Source: an uncultured delta proteobacterium (GTDB lineage Bacteria > Desulfobacterota > Binatia > Binatales > Binataceae). From it: a stretch of DNA of 64,000 nucleotides. The translations under genes and the position numbers were made by a program. The stretch covers positions 3,136,001-3,200,000 of the forward strand of contig CAWJET010000001.1 in the NCBI GenBank assembly GCA_963842085.1, given 5' to 3'. This document shows, in pieces, positions 51,725 through 62,432 of the stretch (within the stretch, counting starts at the first letter, position 1; each line of letters begins with the position of its first letter). The notes below the pieces were generated by a model that saw only the letters and a list, made by a program, of their open reading frames with translations, was not told the DNA's origin and searched no databases.

Positions 51725-52717
51725 TCAGGCGGCAGCAGCGAGCGTGGGGTTGATTCCCATCTCGCGCATGAAGGCTGAAGTGCGCTCGTTCAGCAACCCC
51801 ACCTTTTGCATGTTACTGACGACGGTCTGATGCATCTCGCGGCGGAAAAGTTTACGGAACAATGCGTATTCGCTGCCGAGCGCGATTTCCTTACGCGCCT
51901 TGCGGACGGCTTCGATATCGGCTGCGCTCATGCCGATCGTTTCGTAGGCTTCGCGTGGAAATTGCCCGGTCATAACGAGCACCAGCGCCTCGCGCGTGAA
52001 GTCCTCGAGTTCGTGCAGGTCACCGGGGCTGAGGCCGCGAATCTCGTCGGGCAGGCTCAGGATCGAGAAGCCCATGTGGCGCGATTCGTCAGCCAGGATG
52101 CGCCGGCAAATTTCGCGCAGCAGCGGATCCTTTGCGGTTTCCATCAGCATCCGGAACAGCGCCACCGCAAACGTCTCGGCCAGCAATTGCAGACCGACCG
52201 TTTTGATGAACCATTTGCCATTGCCGAGGATGTAGTCGAACAGCGTCTTGATATTCCCGGTTATCGGATAAATCCGGCCGCCGCACTTCTCGAGCAGGTA
52301 GCGGCTCAGCACTTCGGCGTGCCGCGCTTCATCGACGACCTGCGTCGCCTGGAAAAACTTCGCGTCGTTGCCCGGCACCATGTCGACCAGTTGGCTGCAC
52401 GCGAGCATCGCGCCTTCCTCGCCATGGAGCAGTTGCGACAGCCGCCAGCATGAGAACTCGACGTTGAGCCGCTGGAACTCGCGCGGTTCGAGGCGCTCGA
52501 GCGTGGGAGTGCCGTGGCCGTCGACCAACTCGTCGGCGAAGATGCCGTGCTCCGGGTCGACTTCGAGTTTCCAATCGATGTCGCTCGACGCGTTCCACTG
52601 GTCGCGCTTGGCATTTTCGTAGAGACGGCGGAGGTCGGGAGCCTCGACCGCGTAGTAGCGCTGGAAGGTGGTGTCGAATGAAGTCGGGATTCGGTCGGCG
52701 ATCGAATTCGATGACAT
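51725..52717 (-). CDS. Ferritin-like diiron protein (AurF/CmlI-like oxygenase family)
   Basis: LYENAKRDQW; SQLLHGEEGA; DEARH; DESRH. Confidence 0.85.
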   Translation of the reverse strand: MSSNSIADRIPTSFDTTFQRYYAVEAPDLRRLYENAKRDQWNASSDIDWKLEVDPEHGIFADELVDGHGTPTLERLEPREFQRLNVEFSCWRLSQLLHGEEGAMLACSQLVDMVPGNDAKFFQATQVVDEARHAEVLSRYLLEKCGGRIYPITGNIKTLFDYILGNGKWFIKTVGLQLLAETFAVALFRMLMETAKDPLLREICRRILADESRHMGFSILSLPDEIRGLSPGDLHELEDFTREALVLVMTGQFPREAYETIGMSAADIEAVRKARKEIALGSEYALFRKLFRREMHQTVVSNMQKVGLLNERTSAFMREMGINPTLAAAA

Positions 52718-52877
52718 AAGAACGCGCTCCTGGGCTCGCTTGAGAAACCTCATCAACGCTAGCAAATTCCAGCATGATCGGAAAATCGGCGGCAACGCGG
52801 CTAATCGGCGCATCGAAATCAAGGCGACGCAGGTCAGCTTGACTGCGCCGGAGCAAACATCGATGCTCGTCTGTCGC

Positions 52878-52967
52878 GGAGAGGTTCGGGAGTCTGGTTT
52901 AACCGGCCTGACTCGAAATCAGGTGAGCCTAACGGCTCCGGGGGTTCGAATCCCTCCCTCTCCGCCA
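52878..52967 (+). tRNA. tRNA-Ser(CGA); island integration site
   Basis: Anticodon arm CCTGA-CTCGAAA-TCAGG; long variable arm; GCCA end. Confidence 0.95.
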
Positions 52968-54358
52968 CACAGTTGGTAGTGTTTAGCTACAGCCCGGAGA
53001 TGGCGACAAATTCGCGCGTGGGCGGGCCGATTCGCGCAGCTCGTGGCACCGGAGAGCGCGACCAATCTTGCAAATCGCCAATTCGCCGCGATTCCTCTCT
53101 GTTCCGAAGAGATTCGGTGCCACGAGCGGATTCTGTGCGATCGCCCCTTGACGCTTCTCGCTTCGCTAGATCGATTGGTCCTTAGTGGGTAAGTAGCAGA
53201 GAGGCCCGGCCCTCTAATCCGCAAGGAGCCGCTGCTGCGCGTCCCATTCGATCGGAAGACCGGCCTGAGTCTTGAGACGCTCGGCAGAGAGACAGACCCC
53301 TTGCCGCCCCGCGCAGATGGATTCCACGACTGCTGGAGCGAGCAGGGCTAGCGGCACCATATGACGCACATAGCTTTCGCTCACACCTTCTCGAATGGCG
53401 ATCTGACTGGTTAAAGTGGCAGTTCCTGCCGCGAGTTCGCCGAACCACTGGTACCCGCGGGCCAATGCTCGAAGCAGGGCAGGATCTGTCCGCGGAGCTA
53501 CGACCGCTTCGCTTGGGAGCACCAGCGCGTTTCCACGCCACGACGCCTCATCTGCAGCGGAACAAGACGGGTCATTCGGAGGTTGGCTCCGCCGGCGGGG
53601 AACCGATCGGGTGGCAGAAGCGCTCGTAGATTGAGTGTGATCTGCATTCCGTCCCGCCTTAGCTCGACTCGCTCTATGAGCGTCCCCGTATCCTCTGCCG
53701 TCTCGACCCGCTGATGAGATTTGACCTTCGAATCGATTGCCCCGACCGCCTGCTTGAGTTCTGCAGCAGCGAAGCCAAAAGCTCTGAGGGTTGAGGCCAG
53801 CGCCCCGCGATCCGAGAGCATTGGTCTTGTGCCGGCCATTACCGCCAGTTCAGTTCGTTCGGCAGGCAGGCGCCACCCACGTTCATCCGGCTTCGCGGTT
53901 CCCCTGACCAGCCTCTTCGAGACGAAGTACCTGTAGCGCCGCTGTCCTTTTTTCGCCCAGCAGGAATACAGCGGCTCGCCGCTCTGATCGAAGAGTTTGC
54001 CCATGAGGAGGCCAGGGCTTCTTCTGACCGTTCGTCCCCGAGGGTGAGCGGCTTTCTGGCTCAGCATCTCCTGAACCTGCTGCCAAGTCACTCTTTCGAT
54101 TATCGCTTCGTGCTGACCCGGGTAGGTGACATTCTTGTGCCGGATCTCGCCCACGTAGACCGGATTGGCGAGCAGGTGATAGAGCGCGCAGCGTCCGAAA
54201 GGGAAACCGCCGTGCCGTACACTACCTCTCGACACCCGTTGCTTGGAGAGAATCGACCTGCGGTCCAGTTCTTTTTTGACCCTACGCAAGGTCTTGAATT
54301 CGAGATAGAGCTTAAAGATCAATTGCACCGTCTTAGCTTCGGCTTCGTTTACCACTAG

Positions 54359-55634
54359 CAGGCTGCGGAAAAAGTCCGGTTAGTTATGAATTTGTCCACT
54401 CCGGGTAGTTGTTAGTGTTATTGAGCGAGCATCTAAGGGCCAGCGCAGTGGAGCGCCGACAGGTTCTGGTGTTCGCTTCAGGTGGCGATTGGCAAGAGGT
54501 TGCGCATCCTCACCAAGTTGTAGGCGGCGGCCGCGAAGGTAAACACCCAACCGACCCGGGCGGCACCCCGATGCCGGGTTTTGCGCAAGCCGCCGATGGT
54601 CTTCATCCAACCGAAGATCTCTTCCACCCGTTTGCGCTTGATCTGACTGATGGCGTAACCCGGATGGCGAGTTGTGCGGTGGTCGATGGCGCTGTGCACT
54701 TTGCGCGCGACGTGCGGAGTAACCTGATGCGCGCGCAACTCACGCACCAATTCCTTCTGATCGTAACCCTTATCGGCGCCCAGCGTGACTCGATGCTGGC
54801 CCGCGATCTGGGCCGCCATCGCGAGGGCCGCCTCGGGTTCGGCGCTGCCGCTGGCCTGAGTCAGCCGGGTGTTGACCACCAAGCCATGGCGATTGTCCAT
54901 CTGCACGTGCCCGGCGTAACAGAGCTTGGCCTCTTTGCCCGACCCTTTGCGGGCCAGCCGTGCCTGGGGATCGGTGGTCGATTGGTGCGTGGCGTTGGTG
55001 CGTCGCTCACCATGGAAGTCCACGCTCGGGTTACCGGGATCATCGGGCGGGGTTTGCTGGTCGTCTCCTTTGCGCTTGAAACTCTTGTGTCCGGCCCAGG
55101 CCTCGATCAGGGTGCCGTCGACGGTAAAATGCTCGTTGGAGAGCAGGTCTTGGGCACGCGCTTGCTCGAGCACTGCGTTGAAAAAGCCCTGCGCTACCTC
55201 GGCCACCAGCAAGCGCTCGCGGTTCTTGGTGAAGACGGTCACGTCCCATACTGGGTCGTCGATGTTGAGCCCCACAAACCAGCGAAACAGGAAGTTGTAA
55301 TCGAGCTGCTCCATCAAAAGTCGCTCACTGCGCACCGTGTAGAGCACCTGCAAGAGCAGCGCCCGCAGCAGCTTTTCGGGCGCGATCGACGGCCGCCCGC
55401 AGTTCGCGTAGACCGCGTCGAAGCGCCACGACGACTCCTTAAGGGCGGCGTCCACCATTACCCGAATCGCTCGCAACGGATGATCCTTGGGTACTCGCCG
55501 CTCCGCCGATATGTAACTGAACATTCCGCTCTGCTGATGGTCCACCCCACGCATCACCGTCACCTCCTCCTACAACCTCTTCCTACTCCACTATATCCGA
55601 TCGAGCGGAAAACTCCTCGTTTTTCCACAGCCTG
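54359..55634 (-). mobile_element. IS5/IS1182-like insertion sequence (1276 bp)
   Basis: IRs CAGGCTGCGGAAAAA / TTTTTCCACAGCCTG; CTAG target duplication at 54355-54358 and 55635-55638. Confidence 0.95.
54478..55563 (-). CDS. IS5-family DDE transposase
   Basis: RVPKDHPLR; VDGT; GADKGYD; RKRVEEIFGWMK; AAYNL. Confidence 0.95.
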   Translation of the reverse strand: MTVMRGVDHQQSGMFSYISAERRVPKDHPLRAIRVMVDAALKESSWRFDAVYANCGRPSIAPEKLLRALLLQVLYTVRSERLLMEQLDYNFLFRWFVGLNIDDPVWDVTVFTKNRERLLVAEVAQGFFNAVLEQARAQDLLSNEHFTVDGTLIEAWAGHKSFKRKGDDQQTPPDDPGNPSVDFHGERRTNATHQSTTDPQARLARKGSGKEAKLCYAGHVQMDNRHGLVVNTRLTQASGSAEPEAALAMAAQIAGQHRVTLGADKGYDQKELVRELRAHQVTPHVARKVHSAIDHRTTRHPGYAISQIKRKRVEEIFGWMKTIGGLRKTRHRGAARVGWVFTFAAAAYNLVRMRNLLPIAT

Positions 55635-56161
55635 CTAGACGACGATCGCGCAGGTCGTAGCCCAGCGGCGGCGTGCCTCCCATCCACATCCCTTTCTGCT
55701 TGGACGCCGCGATCTTGTCGCGGATGCGCTCGCCGGTCACCTCGCGTTCGAACTGTGCAAATGAGAGCAGCACGTTCAGGGTTAATCGGCCCATCGACGT
55801 GGTGGTGTTGAACTGCTGCGTGACCGTGACAAACGACACGCCGTGGGTATCGAAGACTTCCACGATCTTGGCGAAGTCGGCCAGAGAGCGGGTCAGGCGG
55901 TCTACCTTATAGACCACGACCACGTCGATCCGCTTTTCCTTGACGTGGGCGAGCAGGGCTTTCAGGGCCGGTCGCTCCATCGTCGCGCCGGAAAATCCGC
56001 CGTCGTCGTAACCCGTTTTAATCAGACGCCAGCCCTCGCCGGTCTGACTTTTGACGAATGCTTCGCAGGCCTGACGCTGTGCGTGCAGGGAGTTGAAGTT
56101 CTGCTCGAGCCCTTCTTCCGAGGACTTGCGCGTGTAGACTGCGCAGCGTTTGGGAGCGCCG

Positions 56162-56644
56162 TCACTTCGAGCCATGACTCGCCTCCCGTCGCTTGCTGCG
56201 CAGACCGAAGAACTGTGGCCCGTTCCAGTGCGCGCTGGTGATTACCTTGGCGACCTCGGTGAGTGACCGGTAGCGCTTTCGTTTGTACAGCACTCCCTGA
56301 TCAAGCACTCGCACTTCGTGCGTCACGCCGTGCCACCCGCGCATCAGGACTGTTCCTGCAGGCGCTGCTGCGGCCGGCTCAAGTTTAAGGGGCTGTCCTG
56401 ACCGTGCGTCGTTGGCGAGGCGAATCAGCAGTCTTCGGGTGGAGGGTCTGAGTCCTCCGTGGAGTTGCTCCTGAATTCGATACGCCACGGCACGGGTCAG
56501 CAGTTTGCGGCTGATGCGAAGCGGCGGCTCGGAGTTGTAGAGCGCCCGCCACTGCTGCTTAAGCTCGGCGATCGCAGACGATTTCAAGAAAGCAACTCGC
56601 TGCGGGATCATCTCCGCCGATTTAGTAAATCTCTGGTCCTCCAT
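56162..56644 (-). CDS. DUF2924 domain protein
   Basis: AVAYRIQEQLHGGL; GTVLMRGWHGVTHEV; YRSLTEVAKVIT..WNGPQFFGL; overlaps the recombinase start; AGGAGG RBS. Confidence 0.9.
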   Translation of the reverse strand: MEDQRFTKSAEMIPQRVAFLKSSAIAELKQQWRALYNSEPPLRISRKLLTRAVAYRIQEQLHGGLRPSTRRLLIRLANDARSGQPLKLEPAAAAPAGTVLMRGWHGVTHEVRVLDQGVLYKRKRYRSLTEVAKVITSAHWNGPQFFGLRSKRREASHGSK

Positions 56645-56678
56645 GTGTGCCCGGCCTCCTGGCGGGCAGACACACACA

Positions 56679-56795
56679 TTGCTCTGGTTCGCCACCGAAG
56701 CCAGTCGACGTGTTCATGCCCATTCGCCTTCCCATCGCCTTCCGGGTCTCACTAAATGAGCGCTCATCGCTCGCTTCGTGCGCGCAACAGAGCAA
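56679..56795. promoter_or_regulatory. Two divergent copies of CTnGCTTCG-N9-CAGAGCAA
   Basis: Minus-strand copy at 56679-56708 faces DUF2924; plus-strand copy at 56767-56795 faces the Zn-finger gene. Confidence 0.65.
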
Positions 56796-56836
56796 GCATC
56801 CGAGGCCAGCCGTTATGGCTGAAGGAGAGCAAGAGA

Positions 56837-57076
56837 ATGGAACGCGCGAAATTGACAAACGGTGAAAAGATTGAGCCGGTAAACATCAAGTCTGCACGAG
56901 CGCCACGGGAGAAGACCGAGCGTAAGCCCAAAGCGGAGAAGCTCGTGTGCCGCTACTGCGGGAGCGACGATCTGGCCCCGAGCTTTATCAAGCGACGCGA
57001 TCGCCGTTGCCGGAAGTGTTTCAGCAAACGCTATGGATCGGCGGCGCGCGGGAAGAAAGCAACCGCAAAAAAGTAG
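56837..57076 (+). CDS. Small basic Zn-ribbon protein
   Basis: CRYC...CRKC, K/R-rich; AAGGAG RBS; terminator follows. Confidence 0.75.
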   Translation: MERAKLTNGEKIEPVNIKSARAPREKTERKPKAEKLVCRYCGSDDLAPSFIKRRDRRCRKCFSKRYGSAARGKKATAKK

Positions 57077-57094
57077 CTGCACTACCACAAGATC

Positions 57095-57130
57095 AGAGAC
57101 CGCGCCCGAAAGGGCGCGCTCTCTTTTTTC
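57095..57130 (+). terminator. Intrinsic terminator
   Basis: CGCGCCC-GAAA-GGGCGCG followed by CTCTCTTTTTT. Confidence 0.85.
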
Positions 57131-57362
57131 GTTGTTACGCTGTGCCCCGACACCGTCTGTTCCAGGGCTCCTACAGAAGTCGCCTGATGGGATGGACCCA
57201 GCCCTCACTTTTCAGTGCGGCCTCTGGATGGGCCAGTATTTACGGCTGGCCGAGATCAATCGCTAGACTTTTCAACGGTTTCGGAGTTTTAGTGGGGACA
57301 GGGATGATGCGGCGCTATTTCGAGGTTCGCATGCAATCGTGCTGACGTGAGGATGTCTGGCA

Positions 57363-58685
57363 ATGGCTGAAACAGCGATCAACGATGACGGCGATTTTTT
57401 TCGGGTGCCCGCCAACGAGGCGTGGACTCTTCTGCAGTTCACCACGCTGCTGTACTACCTGCACGAAACCAATCCAGACAACCTACTGGTCCGCGACAAG
57501 ACTGACCCGAAGACCCCGGTAAGTATTGCGGCCGTCGGAATGGCATTGGCCACGATCCCGGTGATTGTCGAGCGCGGCGTCTTCATCCGCGAATTCGCGG
57601 CCAAGCACACCTTGAAACAACTGCGATACCTGCTGCAATGCCCGCAGGGTCCCGAGCCCGAGGCCTCCGGCTACAACGGCTTCTTCTATCATTTTCTGGA
57701 CATCGAAACAGGCCGGCGCGTTTGGCAGTGTGAGCTGTCGACCATCGATTCGGCCTTTCTGTTCGCGGGCGCGTTGACGGTCGCCACCTATTTTGACCGC
57801 GGCACCGCCGACGAGGCCGAGATCCGCAGGCTCGCCGATGCGCTCTACCAGCGCGCCGATTGGAACTGGGCTCGCGATGGCGCAGCCACACTCACGCACG
57901 GCTGGCGGCCGGAGAGCGGATTCATCCCACACCGGTGGCAAGGCTACGACGAAGGCCTGCTGCTCTACATCTTGGGGCTGGGCTCGCCCACACATCCATT
58001 GCCGCCGGAGAGTTATCGCGCCTACTGCGCAACCTACCAATGGAAAAGCATCTACGCCCGCGAGTTGCTCTACTCGGGCCCGCTATTTACCCATCAACTG
58101 TCACACATGTGGATCGACTTTCGCGACATTCGTGACGAATTCATGAGACAGCATAGCAGCGACTACTTCAAGAACAGCCGTCAGGCGACCTTTGTGCAGC
58201 AAGAGTACGCAGTTCGCAACCCCATGAACTTCGCCGGCTACGGGAAAGACTGCTGGGGATTCACGGCATGCGATGGACCGGGATGGATCAAACGAGTCGT
58301 CAACGGTGTTGAGCGCCAGTTCTTCGACTACACCGCTCGCGGCGCCCCCTTCGGTCCCGATGACGGCACCGTCGCACCCTGGGTGGTCGTCGCCTCCCTG
58401 CCTTTCGCTCCGGAGATTGTCATACCGGCTGTGCGCAATTTTGCCCAACTGGATTTGGGCATGATAAGAAAATACGGATTCTTGCCTTCGTTCAATCAAT
58501 CGTTCGCCGTAGAAGGCAGTCCGACCGGCTGGTGGGTTTCGCCGTATCACTTCGGTGTCGATCAAGGTCCGGTGGTGCTGATGATCGAGAATCATCGCAC
58601 CGGGTTGTTGTGGGAGATCATGCGCCGTTGCTCGCCAATCTTGACCGGTTTGCGTCGGGCAGGCTTTACCGGAGGCTGGTTGTAG
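57363..58685 (+). CDS. Glucoamylase-family / GH144-like glycoside hydrolase (possible beta-1,2-glucanase)
   Basis: GFFYHFLD; ELSTIDS; WQGYDE; GPLFTHQLSH; WGFTACDGP; GVDQGP. Confidence 0.85.
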   Translation: MAETAINDDGDFFRVPANEAWTLLQFTTLLYYLHETNPDNLLVRDKTDPKTPVSIAAVGMALATIPVIVERGVFIREFAAKHTLKQLRYLLQCPQGPEPEASGYNGFFYHFLDIETGRRVWQCELSTIDSAFLFAGALTVATYFDRGTADEAEIRRLADALYQRADWNWARDGAATLTHGWRPESGFIPHRWQGYDEGLLLYILGLGSPTHPLPPESYRAYCATYQWKSIYARELLYSGPLFTHQLSHMWIDFRDIRDEFMRQHSSDYFKNSRQATFVQQEYAVRNPMNFAGYGKDCWGFTACDGPGWIKRVVNGVERQFFDYTARGAPFGPDDGTVAPWVVVASLPFAPEIVIPAVRNFAQLDLGMIRKYGFLPSFNQSFAVEGSPTGWWVSPYHFGVDQGPVVLMIENHRTGLLWEIMRRCSPILTGLRRAGFTGGWL

Positions 58686-58908
58686 TTCGGTGATCCGGGC
58701 GCCTACAGTCAGAGGAGCCTTGATATCTTTATCTTTAGGGGCACCTCGTTGCGTTCGGGCCCATGCACCGCCAAGGCCCATGGCGTCCTTCCAGAAGAAT
58801 GCGGGCTTGGAGTACTCATTGAGCGAACACCCTGCACCGTTCAAACACCAGACTATTCCCCTGTTCGTCCTCAAAACTTGGTCCGCACGAATTCGTTGAT
58901 GGTAGTGT

Positions 58909-58938
58909 TTGACTCAATTGGTTGGACCACTGTATAAG
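58909..58938 (+). promoter_or_regulatory. Promoter with FadR-type operator
   Basis: TTGACT-N18-TATAAG with TGGT-N3-ACCA (58919-58929) in the spacer. Confidence 0.6.
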
Positions 58939-58949
58939 TGGACCACCGA

Positions 58950-59705
58950 ATGACCTCTGTCGTGAAAATCGTTGACTTCCGGCCCGCCGTGCGCCGCCGC
59001 GTCCATGAGGATATCGCCGAGCAACTTCGCGACGCGATTCTCGACGGGCGCTTTCCCGCCGGAAGCAAACTGCCGCCTGAGCGCGAGCTGGCGACTGAAT
59101 TCAGGGTGAATCGCACGTCCATCCGCGACGCCATCAAAGTTCTCGAAGGACTAAGTCTAATACGCGTACGGCAGGGCGACGGGGCGACGGTGCAGCCGCT
59201 GGTTGACGCCTCGTTCGATCTGCTGCCGGCTATGATCTTTCACGGCGGACGCCTTGATGTTCGTGTGCTACTCGAGCTGCTGGAAGTTACAAGGCCGCTT
59301 TTGTTCGAGATGGCCAAGCTCGGACTGGAGCGATCAACGGACGCGCAAATTGAAGGTCTGTGCGCCTTGAGCGATCAGATGGCTGACGAGGATTTGAAAG
59401 ACGAGGAGCGCGCAGCCGCAGGACGCGAGCTGCTGGTCGCGATCGCGGATATGACGGGAAATCGCGTCTGGCGGATGCTTGCGCGTCGCTTGCGCGCTCT
59501 GCTCGCTTCCGATCCTTTGCAGGAGGCCAGGCGCAGAGTCCGCAAGGACCATGGACGTCTCGCCGCCTTTGTCAACGATTCGATCAGGCATCACAAGGCG
59601 GGCCGTCAAGAAAAGGCGCTGGCAGCGCTTCGTCGCGCGCTCGAAGTTCTCGGTCAAGGGTTCAACGATTACGCGCAAATCAGACCCGCGAAGGGCAAGC
59701 AATGA
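58950..59705 (+). CDS. FadR/GntR family regulator
   Basis: KLPPERELATEFRVNRTSIRDA..RQGDG; start approximate. Confidence 0.93.
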   Translation: MTSVVKIVDFRPAVRRRVHEDIAEQLRDAILDGRFPAGSKLPPERELATEFRVNRTSIRDAIKVLEGLSLIRVRQGDGATVQPLVDASFDLLPAMIFHGGRLDVRVLLELLEVTRPLLFEMAKLGLERSTDAQIEGLCALSDQMADEDLKDEERAAAGRELLVAIADMTGNRVWRMLARRLRALLASDPLQEARRRVRKDHGRLAAFVNDSIRHHKAGRQEKALAALRRALEVLGQGFNDYAQIRPAKGKQ

Positions 59706-59781
59706 TCCATTCATAAGCAGCAAGCACATTCCAGGAACTCAACCAACAAGATGGAAATTCCACACAGCTGAAGGAGGCTTC

Positions 59782-60879
59782 ATGAGCACCAATTCCGATA
59801 GCAACCCCGCCGGACTGTACCCTTGGCAGGAGCTTGCCGGATACGAGACTGCGATGGACGTCGCCTGGAACTTTTCTTACGAGATCGACAGCGAAAAGCT
59901 GCGCAACCTTTACTCGAAGGCGAAGCAAAACCAGTGGGACGCCGAGACTCAGCTCGACTGGTCGATCGAGATCGACCCGTCAAAGCCGATCGTCGGCGAG
60001 GGTCGCTTTCCGTTCCTGAGGGTGCCGTTCTTCCAGAAGTTGTCGAAGACCACGCGCGAGACGTTCGTCGCGCATGCGACCTGCCAGTTGCTGTCGCAGT
60101 TTTTGCACGGCGAGCAGGGGGCGCTGATGACCGCCGCCGCCGTGACGCACGCCGCGCCCGACTATGAGGCCAAGCTCTATTCCGCCAGCCAGACCTTCGA
60201 TGAGGCTCGCCACGTTGAGGTCTACGATGCCTACATCAGGAAGCTGGGACTGGTGTATCCGATCTCCGTCTGGCTGAAGGAGCTGATCGACGCGACGCTG
60301 CAGTCGCACAGCTTTGCCAAGACGATGGTCGGCATGAACATGATTGTTGAGGGGCTCGCCCTCGCCGCATTCCACAATATGCGCAAGCAGGCGTCTTGTC
60401 CGTTGCTGCGCTCGCTGACGGAGTACGTTCTGCGCGACGAATCGCGTCACGTGGCCTTCGGCAACGTTTACCTGCGAAAGACGATTGCCGACATGCACCC
60501 TGATGATCGCGAGGATGTCGCCCAGTTCGCATTCGACGCGGTCAAGGCGATGGCGGACGCTACCGGCGGCGCCGATGGGAAGGGTATGCCCAAGCCGGAC
60601 CCGGGTTTTCAGCTCGTCCTCGAGCGCAGCGGTATTGCCCTCGAAGACTTTCTCAAGGGACTGATGGAAGCGGGCGGCGCGGGTTTCGCCGCTCATCTGC
60701 CGCCGGGGCATATCCACGCCTTCCGCGATCTGATGATGCCCGCGCTTGTGCGTGTAGGTGCCGTGACCGAGCGAACACGCGAGCTCTACAAGAACGCCGA
60801 CATCCCGGTGTGGGACGATGTCCGCGTGCTCGAGTCGATGGAGGATGCCACCACCGGCGACATCCAGATGCCAAACTGA
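59782..60879 (+). CDS. Ferritin-like diiron protein (AurF-like), paralog of 51725-52717
   Basis: LYSKAKQNQW; SQFLHGEQGA; DEARH; VEGLA; DESRH; AAGGAGG RBS. Confidence 0.88.
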   Translation: MSTNSDSNPAGLYPWQELAGYETAMDVAWNFSYEIDSEKLRNLYSKAKQNQWDAETQLDWSIEIDPSKPIVGEGRFPFLRVPFFQKLSKTTRETFVAHATCQLLSQFLHGEQGALMTAAAVTHAAPDYEAKLYSASQTFDEARHVEVYDAYIRKLGLVYPISVWLKELIDATLQSHSFAKTMVGMNMIVEGLALAAFHNMRKQASCPLLRSLTEYVLRDESRHVAFGNVYLRKTIADMHPDDREDVAQFAFDAVKAMADATGGADGKGMPKPDPGFQLVLERSGIALEDFLKGLMEAGGAGFAAHLPPGHIHAFRDLMMPALVRVGAVTERTRELYKNADIPVWDDVRVLESMEDATTGDIQMPN

Positions 60880-61073
60880 TCTGAAGAGGGGCGGCACGAT
60901 CGAAGAGGCGCGGTGTCACCGCTCCGGCCTCGTCGCTGAGAGTCTGAGCTGGCGTGCCCGATGACGGTGAGCCACAAGGGACCATCACCGCCTGGGATGG
61001 CTCGCGGTTGCCGCTGGCTCGACTAGAGCCGCGACCGACCCCATTTCAGAAAGGCGATGGATGAGCGAATTTT

Positions 61074-61266
61074 GCTCGAAGCGTGAAGCGAACCGGCTTT
61101 TCTGCGCCTGGAGACAAACCCGAGAAATTCGCCGAATCGGCTGCAGGACTCGCGCTCTCCGGTTCGCATCGAGCGCACACGCGCCGCGTCACGCGGGGAT
61201 TTTCCGCTCACTCCAGATTGTGGGGAAGCACTACAGACTGTGTGGCGGAGCGAGGCGGATTCGAAC
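61074..61266 (-). repeat. Degenerate tRNA-Ser 3' end plus downstream hairpin, inverted copy of 52944-53127
   Basis: Reverse complement reads GTTCGAATCCGCCTCGCTCCGCCACACAGT..GTAGTG..CGCGTG..ACCGGAGAGCGCGA, collinear with 52944-53061. Confidence 0.85.
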
Positions 61267-62212
61267 TGTGCCTTCTCAAAACTTAATCTGCAGTGATTGA
61301 TTGGCGATTTCAAACGCCTGGCGATAGCCTGCCTGCAGGACAATGCCGACCGCCGACGCGCGTAACGAGCCTCGAACTCATACCGATCTGGTCCTGGAAG
61401 CGATTGCGCTGCGCCATCAGATTGCGGTGCTGAAGCGAAGCGGAACCCGCCGCCCCTGTTTCCGTCTTTGGGATCGATTGTTTTGGATCTTTCTGTCGTG
61501 GTGGTGGCCGAACTGGCACGAGAGCCTGCTGATCGTACAACCGGCAACGGTGCAGCGCTGGCGGTGTAATGGCTGGTCAGGGCTCTGGAGATACCGTTCA
61601 CGCGGTCGCTGGCGAGGCGGGCGCCCGAGAGTATCTCGGGAAGTACGTTGCTTGATCACCCGGATGGCCCGCGAGAACTTTCTGTGGGGCGCACCACGGA
61701 TCCACGGCGAGCTTCTCATGCTCGGGTTCCAAGTCTCTCAAGCAACGGTTTCGCGCTACCTGTCGACTTCAGGCCGGAGCACGGGCCAGTCGTGGCGAAC
61801 GTTTATTCGCAATCAGGCGATTGCCTTCAGCGACAAGGACATCACGGAGCACGAATACGGTGCAGAAGACCTGGGTTTGTCGGAGCATTTTGGTGGCGGC
61901 AGACCCATGCACTTTGGTGCAGGGATTGCGAGATTAGAGGCTGCCCCTTGGATCTCGCATGAGCCGATAAGACCTAGGCGGCATGCGGAAGGACTCACCG
62001 AGCGTCCTGGATGGCGCGCACGAGGTGCTCTGGTCCCCGTCCAGCGCTTGGGCTCCCCGTCTGGTCGCACGCTCAATTCTCATCTGAATCCTTTTCTAAC
62101 CGAGGTTCAGATGCGAGGTCCTCCTCATCACGCATGGGCGTCATCCAAGCTGCAGTAACGCTCGAATCGACAGGGTCGGTCTTTTGTGCGGACCAAGTTT
62201 TGAGGAGCGACA
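61267..62212 (+). mobile_element. Defective IS (rve-integrase/IS481-IS3-like) with TGT...ACA ends
   Basis: Left end TGTGCCTTCTCAAAACTTAATCTGCA; right end GTGCGGACCAAGTTTTGAGGAGCGACA. Confidence 0.75.
61343..62158 (+). pseudogene. Transposase N-terminal/HTH part lacking the DDE core
   Basis: LRHQIAVL; DRLFW; IVQPATV; ENFLWGAPRIHGELL; WRTFIRN, then unrelated sequence. Confidence 0.8.
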
Positions 62213-62432
62213 GCCCCACCGTAAGTGGCTCACGCAGCAACGGGTTTTCCTTGAGGTACAGCATTCCGAGGCACAGATAGAGGCTGGCGCGCCAGTAGGC
62301 GTCGATGTCGCGCAGCTCGTCCGGGCTGAGCGGCGTCCCTTTGATCGTCGAGCGGGCGGGACCATACGCCGATATCGTAGATGTCTTTTCGTCGTAAGGG
62401 ACGGCCTCCGACTTTCTTGCGACTGTGGTCAT
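62213..62432 (-). pseudogene. xfp: Phosphoketolase N-terminal fragment cut by the IS end
   Basis: IDAYWRASLYLCLGMLYLKENPLLREPL ends abruptly at the IS right end. Confidence 0.85.

Follow-up and report, generated by a model that had tools for sequence, protein, structure and literature searches.

This locus raises the question of why the 3' end of a tRNA-Ser gene, followed by a long hairpin, occurs twice and in inverted orientation within the window (the whole 64,000-nucleotide stretch of DNA that was analysed). The earlier note had described a unit that starts at the tRNA-Ser T-loop (52944) and is repeated on the minus strand from 61266. An inverted-repeat comparison confirms this description, since no inverted repeat in the region is longer than the one that pairs 52944-53020 with 61190-61266 (77 nt, 74% identity). 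When 276-nt stretches of the two copies are aligned with MAFFT, the mean column identity is 76% and the previously listed shared blocks are recovered. In this unit a tRNA-Ser 3' core (CTCCGCCA) is followed by a spacer of 65 nt and an imperfect palindrome of 97 nt, and the unit is always found on the recombinase stop-codon side of an element that encodes a large serine recombinase (LSR). Copy 1 and its element comprise the following features:

52878..52967, + strand: intact tRNA-Ser(CGA) gene (ARAGORN; Rfam tRNA, 48.7 bits)
52944-52967, + strand: putative recombination core of copy 1, the last 24 nt of the tRNA from T-loop to CCA, ending CTCCGCCA
52968..53032, + strand: proximal tail of copy 1, 65 nt (alignments; CCA-to-hairpin distance)
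53033..53129, + strand: imperfect palindrome of copy 1, 97 nt (model R1, 107.5 bits; -42.4 kcal/mol, z = -3.70 against dinucleotide shuffles)
53182..54354, - strand: C-terminal part of the LSR gene, frameshifted (Pfam Recombinase PF07508)
54355..55638, - strand: IS of 1284 bp within the LSR gene (DUF772 + DDE_Tnp_1 transposase, 19-nt terminal inverted repeats)
55639..56175, - strand: N-terminal catalytic (Resolvase) part of the LSR gene (Pfam PF00239, E = 1.4e-40)
56162..56695, - strand: DUF2924 protein gene, upstream of the LSR gene (Pfam PF11149, E = 6.4e-41)
56837..57076, + strand: small basic zinc-ribbon ORF of 79 aa with CRYC..CRKC, divergent from the DUF2924 gene (translation)
57101-57128: intrinsic terminator behind the zinc-ribbon ORF (terminator scan)
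57159..57187, + strand: right-arm remnant of the element (GTTCCAGGGCTCCTACAGAAGTCGCCTGA; compared with 6 other right ends)

The perfect 13-bp stem reported for copy 1 (53039-53051 / 53115-53127) is real, and the palindrome as a whole is made up of a 13-bp outer stem, a GGAGAG/CTCTC inner stem, an apical part of about 42 nt and a 15-nt 3' bulge. The proximal tail carries CACAGT.. beside the core, presumed to be a recombinase half-site, together with a GGAGA box and a AAATTCGCGCGTG box. The LSR stop codon lies 52 nt past the hairpin, the frameshift splits the C-terminal part between ORFs 53182-53541 and 53498-54355, and the IS has four more copies in the genome (95-100% identity). At the far end, the right arm stops 2 nt short of where intact copies enter a tRNA-like GTTCGAA...CTCCGCCA core, and a repeat starting at about 57182 recurs at two other places. 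At the intact tRNA-Ser(CGA) gene, copy 1 forms the predicted left junction (attL) of an element whose LSR is broken by the IS and the frameshift and whose right arm is truncated.

The proposal that the unit belongs to DUF2924/LSR elements and is tied to a tRNA-Ser attachment site is supported by block homology and by linkage to LSR genes. Tail, LSR gene, DUF2924 gene and small ORF are homologous as one block to C2:1613577-1616430 (85-93%) and to C1:522852-525709 (81-88%). Intact sister LSRs of 554 and 561 aa contain Resolvase and Recombinase domains, both of which the broken gene in the window retains, as expected of a large serine recombinase, and the LSR matches PHROG 95, annotated as 'integrase'. 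In these elements, which are about 3 kb long and encode a DUF2924 protein and a small zinc-ribbon protein besides the LSR, the unit makes up the arm on the recombinase side. The genome contains seven full-length matches to DUF2924, all of them adjoining an LSR gene, and one partial match fused to an LSR frame; the zinc-ribbon ORF is conserved at 10 of the 15 loci examined. By position only, the DUF2924 and zinc-ribbon proteins are candidate recombination directionality factors. A partial match of DUF2924 to the RAMA DNA-binding domain is described in an excerpt of PMC11342252.

The tail itself is borne by the element. Tails come after tRNA-Ser cga, gct and gga genes in relatives, and where tRNA-Ser(gct) is unoccupied, as in this genome and in genome G087, the gene passes directly into unrelated flanking DNA with no tail. 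One relative (L098) carries a complete 3.1-kb element at an intact tRNA-Ser(cga) gene, with a second core on the far side. Several junctions share a core dyad, GACT at -11..-8 and AGTC at +8..+11 around the point between CTCC and GCCA. Among the loci compared, no empty/occupied pair of a single locus was found.

Copy 2 and its surroundings are made up as follows:

61019..61080, - strand: distal tail of copy 2, to the relic LSR stop (homology to an intact sister element)
61081..61177, - strand: palindrome of copy 2, 97 nt, second subfamily (GCGAACCGG/CCGGTTCGC; model R1, 64.9 bits; fold z = -1.49)
61178..61242, - strand: proximal tail of copy 2, 65 nt (alignment; CCA-to-hairpin distance)
61243..61266, - strand: tRNA-like core of copy 2 (GTTCGAATCCGCCTCGCTCCGCCA), of the element-borne type, abutting an IS-like terminal inverted repeat at 61266
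61266..62213, no strand assigned: IS-like element (inverted repeats 61266-61292 / 62187-62213, HTH_32 ORF)
62214-62432, - strand: phosphoketolase N-terminus, truncated by the IS-like element (XFP_N, profile positions 2-38 of 364)

The hairpin described for copy 2 holds up in part: its GCGAACCGG/CCGGTTCGC stem is present, but its fold is unexceptional by itself. At G000:C1:1260351, the closest relative of copy 2 (94% over 248 nt, 61019-61266) immediately adjoins the 3' side of an intact recombinase gene, and homology to this intact sister element stops 2 codons into the lost LSR gene, of which a relic stop codon is left (TAG, + strand positions 61024-61026). The genome has four tRNA-Ser genes, and the tRNA-like part of copy 2 (..CCGCCTCGCTCCGCCA) corresponds to none of them. 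The IS-like element cuts copy 2 at the T-loop on one side and the phosphoketolase N-terminus on the other. Copies 1 and 2 are members of two different subfamilies, the second being represented by copy 2 as a decayed orphan that has lost its LSR gene. The case that the earlier note had set against its own interpretation, in which copy 2 is the decayed end of a separate element that lost its recombinase, is therefore the one we find, since the core is cut by an IS-like element and the LSR is gone. Because copy 2 is an orphan of another subfamily with a lost LSR, it is incidental that the copies lie inverted to each other, and this arrangement would be a by-product of IS-driven scrambling.

Nor are these the only two copies, as had been supposed, since a covariance model of the hairpin detects 11 in the genome. 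The same tail precedes all 11, and the CCGCCA core precedes 10 of them. A MITE or other independent palindromic repeat was rejected because every genomic hairpin lies inside a tail at the same offset. Six of the copies sit 3' of LSR genes; three of the nine LSR genes in the genome have no hairpin 3' of them, which counts against the explanation that we favor below. The unit is present in 72 of 151 sampled Binataceae genomes and in none of the 150 other genomes of the phylum that were searched. Membership, architecture and distribution of the unit are direct observations.

The geometry of the unit is rigid. Of 44 units, 37 have exactly 65 nt between CCA and hairpin and 42 have 64-66 nt, and the hairpin is 97-98 nt long in 46 of 49 distinct sequences. 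The spacer between hairpin and LSR stop varies by tens of nt across loci, a rough figure measured from the end of the protein match. As had been claimed, sequence differs between the hairpin arms of the subfamilies while the long palindrome is kept. The associated claim of structural selection stands insofar as pairing potential is retained (80.6%, versus 43-51% in slid controls), but selection is weakly shown when relatedness is considered, with 5 compensatory branch events where about 10% of random-pair null sets reach 5 (p about 0.1). Stem columns are more conserved than others (3.6 changes per stem column versus 8.2 per other column).

Taken together, we consider it probable that the copies are end-pieces of LSR elements and that the 162-bp stretch behind the core is a double-stranded DNA accessory arm of the attachment site. 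We favor such an arm because the length of the stretch and its distance from the core are rigid, its sequence drifts, and the DNA beyond it varies in length. Our best guess is therefore that spacer and palindrome form a candidate recombination accessory arm. The elements would insert at tRNA-Ser 3' ends and also at the tRNA-like cores of resident copies, giving rise to tandem and nested arrays. The recombination core would extend from the tRNA T-loop to CCA, as genuine tRNA sequence at a tRNA gene and as a mimic at other places. The 162-bp arm would be bound by the LSR, the DUF2924 protein or the zinc-ribbon protein, and the bound arm would set synapsis or directionality; this job of the conserved long hairpin is putative. 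Against such an arm, sites of about 50 bp suffice for known serine integrases, so that one of about 170 bp would be unusual. The palindrome also differs from known dimer-binding sites, since its two halves are separated by 63 bp and are asymmetric (15-nt bulge). Only tentatively do we suggest the more specific model of a serine-integrase system with a geometry-locked att arm that is read by a RAMA-like DUF2924 protein and/or the zinc-ribbon protein for synapsis or direction.

The foremost alternative, which we judge unlikely, is that the tail acts as RNA, read from the strong tRNA-Ser promoter once the native T-rich trailer has been displaced. The hairpin might then stop or process read-through and so shield the convergent LSR gene, it might stabilize the 3' end of the LSR mRNA, or the tail might yield a trailer-derived small RNA made only in the integrated state. 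A T-rich run does follow the unoccupied tRNA-Ser(gct) gene and is absent from occupied genes, and in every attL the hairpin is flanked by the tRNA and LSR genes, which converge on it. The retained pairing and rigid length would suit a structured RNA, and a metatranscriptome contig of one relative covers the tRNA plus 49 nt of tail, a very weak indication given that only contigs are involved. Orphan tails also persist at tRNA genes: an LSR match is absent for 12 of the 20 hairpin units behind tRNA-Ser genes that have enough downstream sequence, and tails that outlast the recombinase there might instead reflect some advantage for tRNA expression. Against an RNA, an intrinsic terminator (GC-rich stem plus T-run) was rejected, with 0 sites on both strands of both units in a scan that does find one behind the small ORF, and no promoter was found in either copy on either strand. 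The two strands fold alike (mean energy difference -0.18 kcal/mol, p = 0.55), wobble pairs are not enriched (37 G-T versus 24 A-C), and folding z-scores are modest, with a mean of -1.54 and values below -2 in 17 of 49 sequences. In Rfam 15 the only match at the gathering score is the tRNA, with none for the tail; a sub-threshold sX4 match overlapping the tRNA scores 29.1 bits against a cut-off of 70. Finally, an insulator would not require a fixed distance from the core.

Far less credible is the idea, raised in the earlier note, that the unit is an attC-like single-strand site tagging cargo for capture at tRNA-Ser, or that the two copies invert the 8.3-kb segment between them. The long, imperfect hairpin with subfamily-specific arm sequences and the assorted genes beside the copies would fit such a site. 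An integron attC site was nevertheless rejected, given that the shared core falls outside the hairpin, 65 nt away, and that neither strand folds better; serine recombinases, moreover, work on duplex DNA. The inverted copies are not a functional pair, since the core of copy 2 is cut by an IS-like element and cannot recombine as a full site, its recombinase is gone, and the sole recombinase between the copies is broken. Orphan copies do not behave as cargo tags, as they adjoin unrelated ordinary genes and their deletion end-points are scattered, at 63, 87, 127 and 144 nt inside the tail, elsewhere within the hairpin, or in the LSR gene, of which remnants of 84-131 aa are left. Twenty hairpin loci without an LSR match were checked, and the 60 largest ORFs downstream of them include none with a recombinase domain. 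The elements decay at random.

We can dismiss as highly improbable a native tRNA-Ser trailer or terminator beside which recombinase elements merely land, since, although a tail-like trailer follows six of six tRNA-Ser(cga) genes examined in the genus (own genome, L014 and four of five further relatives), the unoccupied tRNA-Ser genes contradict it, with no hairpin module at tRNA-Ser(gct) and tRNA-Ser(tga) of the genome, tails follow three different tRNA-Ser isoacceptors and are also present away from tRNA genes, joined there to the right arms of elements, and tail and LSR gene are homologous as a single contiguous block.

If the accessory-arm explanation is correct, serine integrases that act at tRNA genes, repair them through an element-borne 3' mimic and retain a long, length-locked arm beside the crossover would widen the known range of these enzymes, which are valued for genome engineering for their short sites and independence of host factors. 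Accessory-site control could then be tested on these elements. For annotation, the repeat behind many Binataceae tRNA-Ser genes would represent relic element ends, not a host RNA gene. To our knowledge, tRNA genes as a target class have long been credited to tyrosine integrases only.

Known elements and prophages moved by LSRs include those of the phiC31, Bxb1, TP901-1 and A118 integrases, TnpX, and CcrAB of SCCmec. The Binataceae elements resemble them in the Resolvase and Recombinase domains, the specific sites and the core dyad of several junctions. They differ in that they target tRNA genes at the 3' end, carry a tRNA 3' mimic, and are tiny, cargo-free and multi-copy. We know of no counterpart of the conserved 162-bp arm beside the core. 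A phage case at tRNA-Met is mentioned in PMC6536676.

As in the tDNA islands of tyrosine integrases (Islander), an element-borne 3' fragment regenerates the tRNA, the integrase gene adjoins the junction, and elements accrete in tandem with the displaced core as a direct repeat in relatives (L098); the enzyme, however, is a serine and not a tyrosine recombinase. The Islander displaced-fragment signature is found in relatives L098 and L048. In the window the direct-repeat partner is absent, the only second core being inverted and IS-cut and the right arm being truncated at 57187.

In the recombination module of phage WO of Wolbachia, an excerpt of PMC10299305 places the DUF2924 gene immediately before the recombinase gene, the same order as here. 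WO is, however, a 65-kb prophage, for which that excerpt describes neither a tRNA-Ser site nor a structured arm. The flanks of five alphaproteobacterial DUF2924 loci contain neither a tRNA nor the hairpin.

In the res sites of Tn3/gamma-delta-type serine resolvases, crossover takes place at one end, with some 100 bp of accessory DNA to one side at fixed spacing. The Binataceae unit likewise has its putative crossover core at one end and a candidate accessory stretch on one side at fixed spacing, but with one long imperfect palindrome in place of two short dimer sites. Arm-dependent control is known from lambda-type tyrosine integrases, and the Binataceae elements, if their arm works as proposed, would be its serine-recombinase counterpart.

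Sequence comparison identifies the unit that starts at the T-loop of tRNA-Ser(cga) (52944, plus strand; copy 1) and has a counterpart on the minus strand from 61266 (copy 2) as an att-linked end-piece of small large-serine-recombinase (LSR) elements, a widespread family at tRNA-Ser. Each unit consists of a tRNA-Ser 3' core followed by the element's tail, which holds a 65-nt spacer and a 97-nt imperfect palindrome (the hairpin). The two copies lie among the following features.

52878-52967, plus strand: tRNA-Ser(cga), whose 3' part from the T-loop (52944) onward is the first part of copy 1
Right of copy 1, minus strand: LSR gene, split by a 1284-bp insertion sequence (IS) and frameshifted as well
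54355-55638: the IS inside the LSR gene (1284 bp; DUF772 and DDE_Tnp_1; 19-nt terminal repeats at 54355-54373 and 55620-55638)
56162-56695, minus strand: DUF2924 gene, next after the LSR gene
56837-57076: small zinc-ribbon ORF of 79 aa, divergent from the DUF2924 gene, with a terminator behind it
61266-62213: IS-like element bordering the tRNA-like side of copy 2, its other end truncating a phosphoketolase gene
Bordering the far side of copy 2: AurF-like gene

BLAST finds further copies of copy 1 in the whole genome, and a covariance model of the hairpin finds 11 hairpins there. Across the family the same model has matches in 18 of 30 genera, or in 72 of the 151 genomes sampled (70 of 149 without two unpublished genomes, G044 and G077); in 150 genomes from elsewhere in the phylum it has none. 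The unit is thus not confined to the two copies on which the earlier note relied. A tail of like kind precedes all 11 genomic hairpins, and a CCGCCA core lies at a fixed offset in 10 of them; therefore, the hairpin is not an independent repeat. Six of the hairpins lie immediately 3' of an LSR gene. There are nine LSR domain matches in the genome and seven full-length DUF2924 matches, each of the latter adjoining an LSR gene; one more DUF2924 match is partial and is fused to the reading frame of an LSR. Tail, LSR, DUF2924 and small ORF are homologous as a single block across copies (the small ORF is kept in 10 of the 15 loci examined). The earlier proposal of an att-like unit of DUF2924-recombinase elements is supported. 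The copies divide into subfamilies: copy 1 clusters with units at C1:522858 and C2:1616415 (C1 and C2 are contigs of this genome), and copy 2 with C1:1260351 (94% over 248 nt), which sits immediately behind an intact 561-aa LSR. The nearest DUF2924 relatives are in Candidatus Binataceae/Binatus MAGs; the DUF2924 loci of five Alphaproteobacteria, whose genes are more distant, lack both a tRNA and the hairpin in their flanks.

The tail itself is part of the element. In this genome and in a relative, G087, tRNA-Ser(gct) has an unrelated T-rich flank directly 3', and in relatives tails stand behind tRNA-Ser of three anticodons (cga, gct and gga). One relative's locus, L098, holds a complete 3.1-kb element without cargo, in the order tRNA-Ser(cga), tail, LSR, DUF2924, small ORF, terminator and second tRNA-like core, the last followed by a truncated older tail. 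Cores at non-tRNA junctions end ..GCTCCGCCA, whereas tRNA cores end ..CTCTCCGCCA or ..CCCTCCGCCA; given these endings, the predicted crossover for elements with non-tRNA cores must fall within CTCCGCCA or close to it. Several junctions have GACT and AGTC placed symmetrically about CTCC|GCCA. The core of copy 2 is of the element type and matches none of the genome's four tRNA-Ser genes. A search by synteny with G087 did not recover the native flank, the G087 DNA past the LSR remnant mapping elsewhere.

Other tRNA-Ser loci show variants of this arrangement. On contig C3 of G087 (loci L016/L073), a tRNA-Ser(gct) fragment reaching back to the anticodon loop precedes one tail, even though another tRNA-Ser(gct) of G087 is intact and unoccupied; long tRNA fragments are therefore carried by some elements. 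The post-CCA flank of tRNA-Ser(tga) at C2:61911-61990 (GGGAGTCC...ACAATCTCAGG) bears a faint likeness to tails over their first ~45 nt and may be a very old relic. The tails at C1:2178446 (tRNA-Ser gga) and C2:1677933 form a mosaic, because they are near-identical flanking the hairpin and for >1.2 kb downstream but diverge over the hairpin's 5' two-thirds; at C2:1677933 the 5' arm does not pair with the 3' arm, and an alternative stem, GCGCAC/GTGCGC, is present instead.

The conserved blocks earlier described as shared by the two window copies are present in a 276-nt alignment of both, and no inverted repeat in the region is longer than 52944-53020 / 61190-61266 (77 nt, 74% identity). Compared with dinucleotide shuffles, the long fold of the copy 1 hairpin (53033-53129, 97 nt) has a z of -3.70, and the similar fold of the copy 2 hairpin (61177 to 61081) is unremarkable (z = -1.49). 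RNAalifold returned no consensus structure for a MAFFT alignment of 30 tails because the subfamilies are out of register, and a covariance model with a structure set by hand was used in its place.

The earlier note held the unit to be under structural selection, for which the evidence is mixed. In the model alignment of 49 distinct sequences, paired cells amount to 80.6%, as against 74.5% in column shuffles (none of 500 as high as observed) and 43-51% with slid partners. Cells changed on both sides number 56 versus 27.8 expected (again reached by 0 of 500 shuffles), and the arms vary among subfamilies yet remain complementary (GCTCGTGGCACCG, CTCGCGGCACCAG, CATCGGCACCG, ATCGGGACCG, GCGAACCGG). 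Any double change, however, occurs in 10 of the 18 stem pairs, a count reached by 82 of 500 shuffles. Pairing is kept, but compensatory branches are few: a parsimony count on the tree gives only 5 branches with a compensatory double change (0-1 for slid pairs). Random non-stem column pairs give a mean of 2.4, and 5 or more such branches turn up in 10.4% of the random sets. Raw covariation is inflated by subfamily structure, since isolated non-helical column pairs score equal to true stem pairs in a pairwise column scan. Stem columns are conserved, with 3.6 changes per column versus 8.2 in other columns.

The geometry of the unit is nearly invariant. CCA and hairpin are 65 nt apart in 37 of the 44 units that could be measured (64-66 nt in 42), the hairpin is 97-98 nt long in 46 of 49 distinct sequences, and this geometry persists across subfamilies with strongly diverged spacer sequence. 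The spacer from hairpin to LSR stop varies by tens of nt among loci, as measured roughly from the protein-match end. Folding shows no strand preference (mean difference -0.18 kcal/mol, p = 0.55), and G-T pairs (37) barely exceed A-C (24). The 162-bp stretch of spacer and hairpin is more consistent with an accessory arm of duplex DNA than with a terminator, because its length is locked, it is tied to the recombination core, its arms are conserved in sequence and it lacks strand preference. Alternatively, the stretch may be a structured RNA. The unit has no Rfam match and no promoter or terminator pattern was found in it; contigs of one soil metatranscriptome (0.05 word share) cover relatives' AurF gene and tRNA and leave hairpin and LSR uncovered, which is uninformative either way.

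Copy 2, earlier taken as the inverted partner of copy 1, is a decayed orphan: its core is cut by the IS-like end exactly at the T-loop and its LSR is lost. Copy 2 stays homologous to its intact sister element along the tail as far as a relic stop codon (TAG, 61024-61026), and the match stops two codons inside the lost gene. Of the 48 hairpin loci that were examined, 23 are followed by an LSR or a remnant of one; in 22 the next 1.4 kb holds neither, and for three the sequence is too short. A tRNA was called upstream of 24 loci, in two cases not tRNA-Ser. No recombinase domain was found in the 60 largest downstream ORFs of 20 no-LSR loci checked. Right-hand tails end at 63, 87, 127 and 144 nt, others break off within the hairpin, and LSR remnants of 84-131 aa occur as well; such scattered end-points fit random decay rather than a second recombination site. 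With copy 2 a relic and deletion end-points scattered, the attC-like capture and inversion readings are unsupported.

Mobile sequences have also altered the neighbourhood. The 1284-bp IS has four further genomic copies, one adjoining another recombinase element (C1:1263474), and is probably active, as two of the four are 100% identical. A frame break ~110 codons before the LSR stop (53498-53541) is common to the C2 copy (C2:1614994-1616430); the copy at C1:523143 is continuous (554 aa). The common break would be either an inactivating mutation that both copies share or a shorter isoform. At 57182-57239 a ~58-nt repeat (GCCTGATGGGATGGACCC...) breaks into the element's right arm; its end recurs at C1:1628680, where it forms a short unit with inverted repeats, and at C1:1495603, immediately upstream of an ORF whose start presumably resembles an IS110-family transposase. 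A former junction of the truncated right arm (57187) with copy 2, whose first bases are precisely GTTCGAA, is unsupported, since the space from 57188 on is taken up by ~1.7 kb of other sequence and by a different repeat. A solo terminal repeat of the IS-like element at 58861-58898, between glucoamylase-like and GntR genes, is oriented as the repeat at 61266, which hints at an IS-mediated rearrangement of 58861-62213; a fuller copy of this IS-like family seems to lie at C1:538846-540268. The AurF-like di-iron oxygenase genes near the two copies (51725-52822 and 59683-60879) are only 32% identical, and so are old paralogues rather than a recent duplication.

The retrieved literature passages on DUF2924 contain no description of att sites, and those on serine recombinases and tRNA-Ser describe no such element. 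The excerpted text of the Islander paper reports no known tRNA-gene targeting by serine-family integrases. In excerpts on other systems, integration at tRNA-Met is predicted for a Paracoccus phage with a serine recombinase (PMC6536676), DUF2924 has a partial match to the RAMA DNA-binding domain (PMC11342252), and a Wolbachia phage region has a recombinase directly downstream of a DUF2924 gene (PMC10299305).
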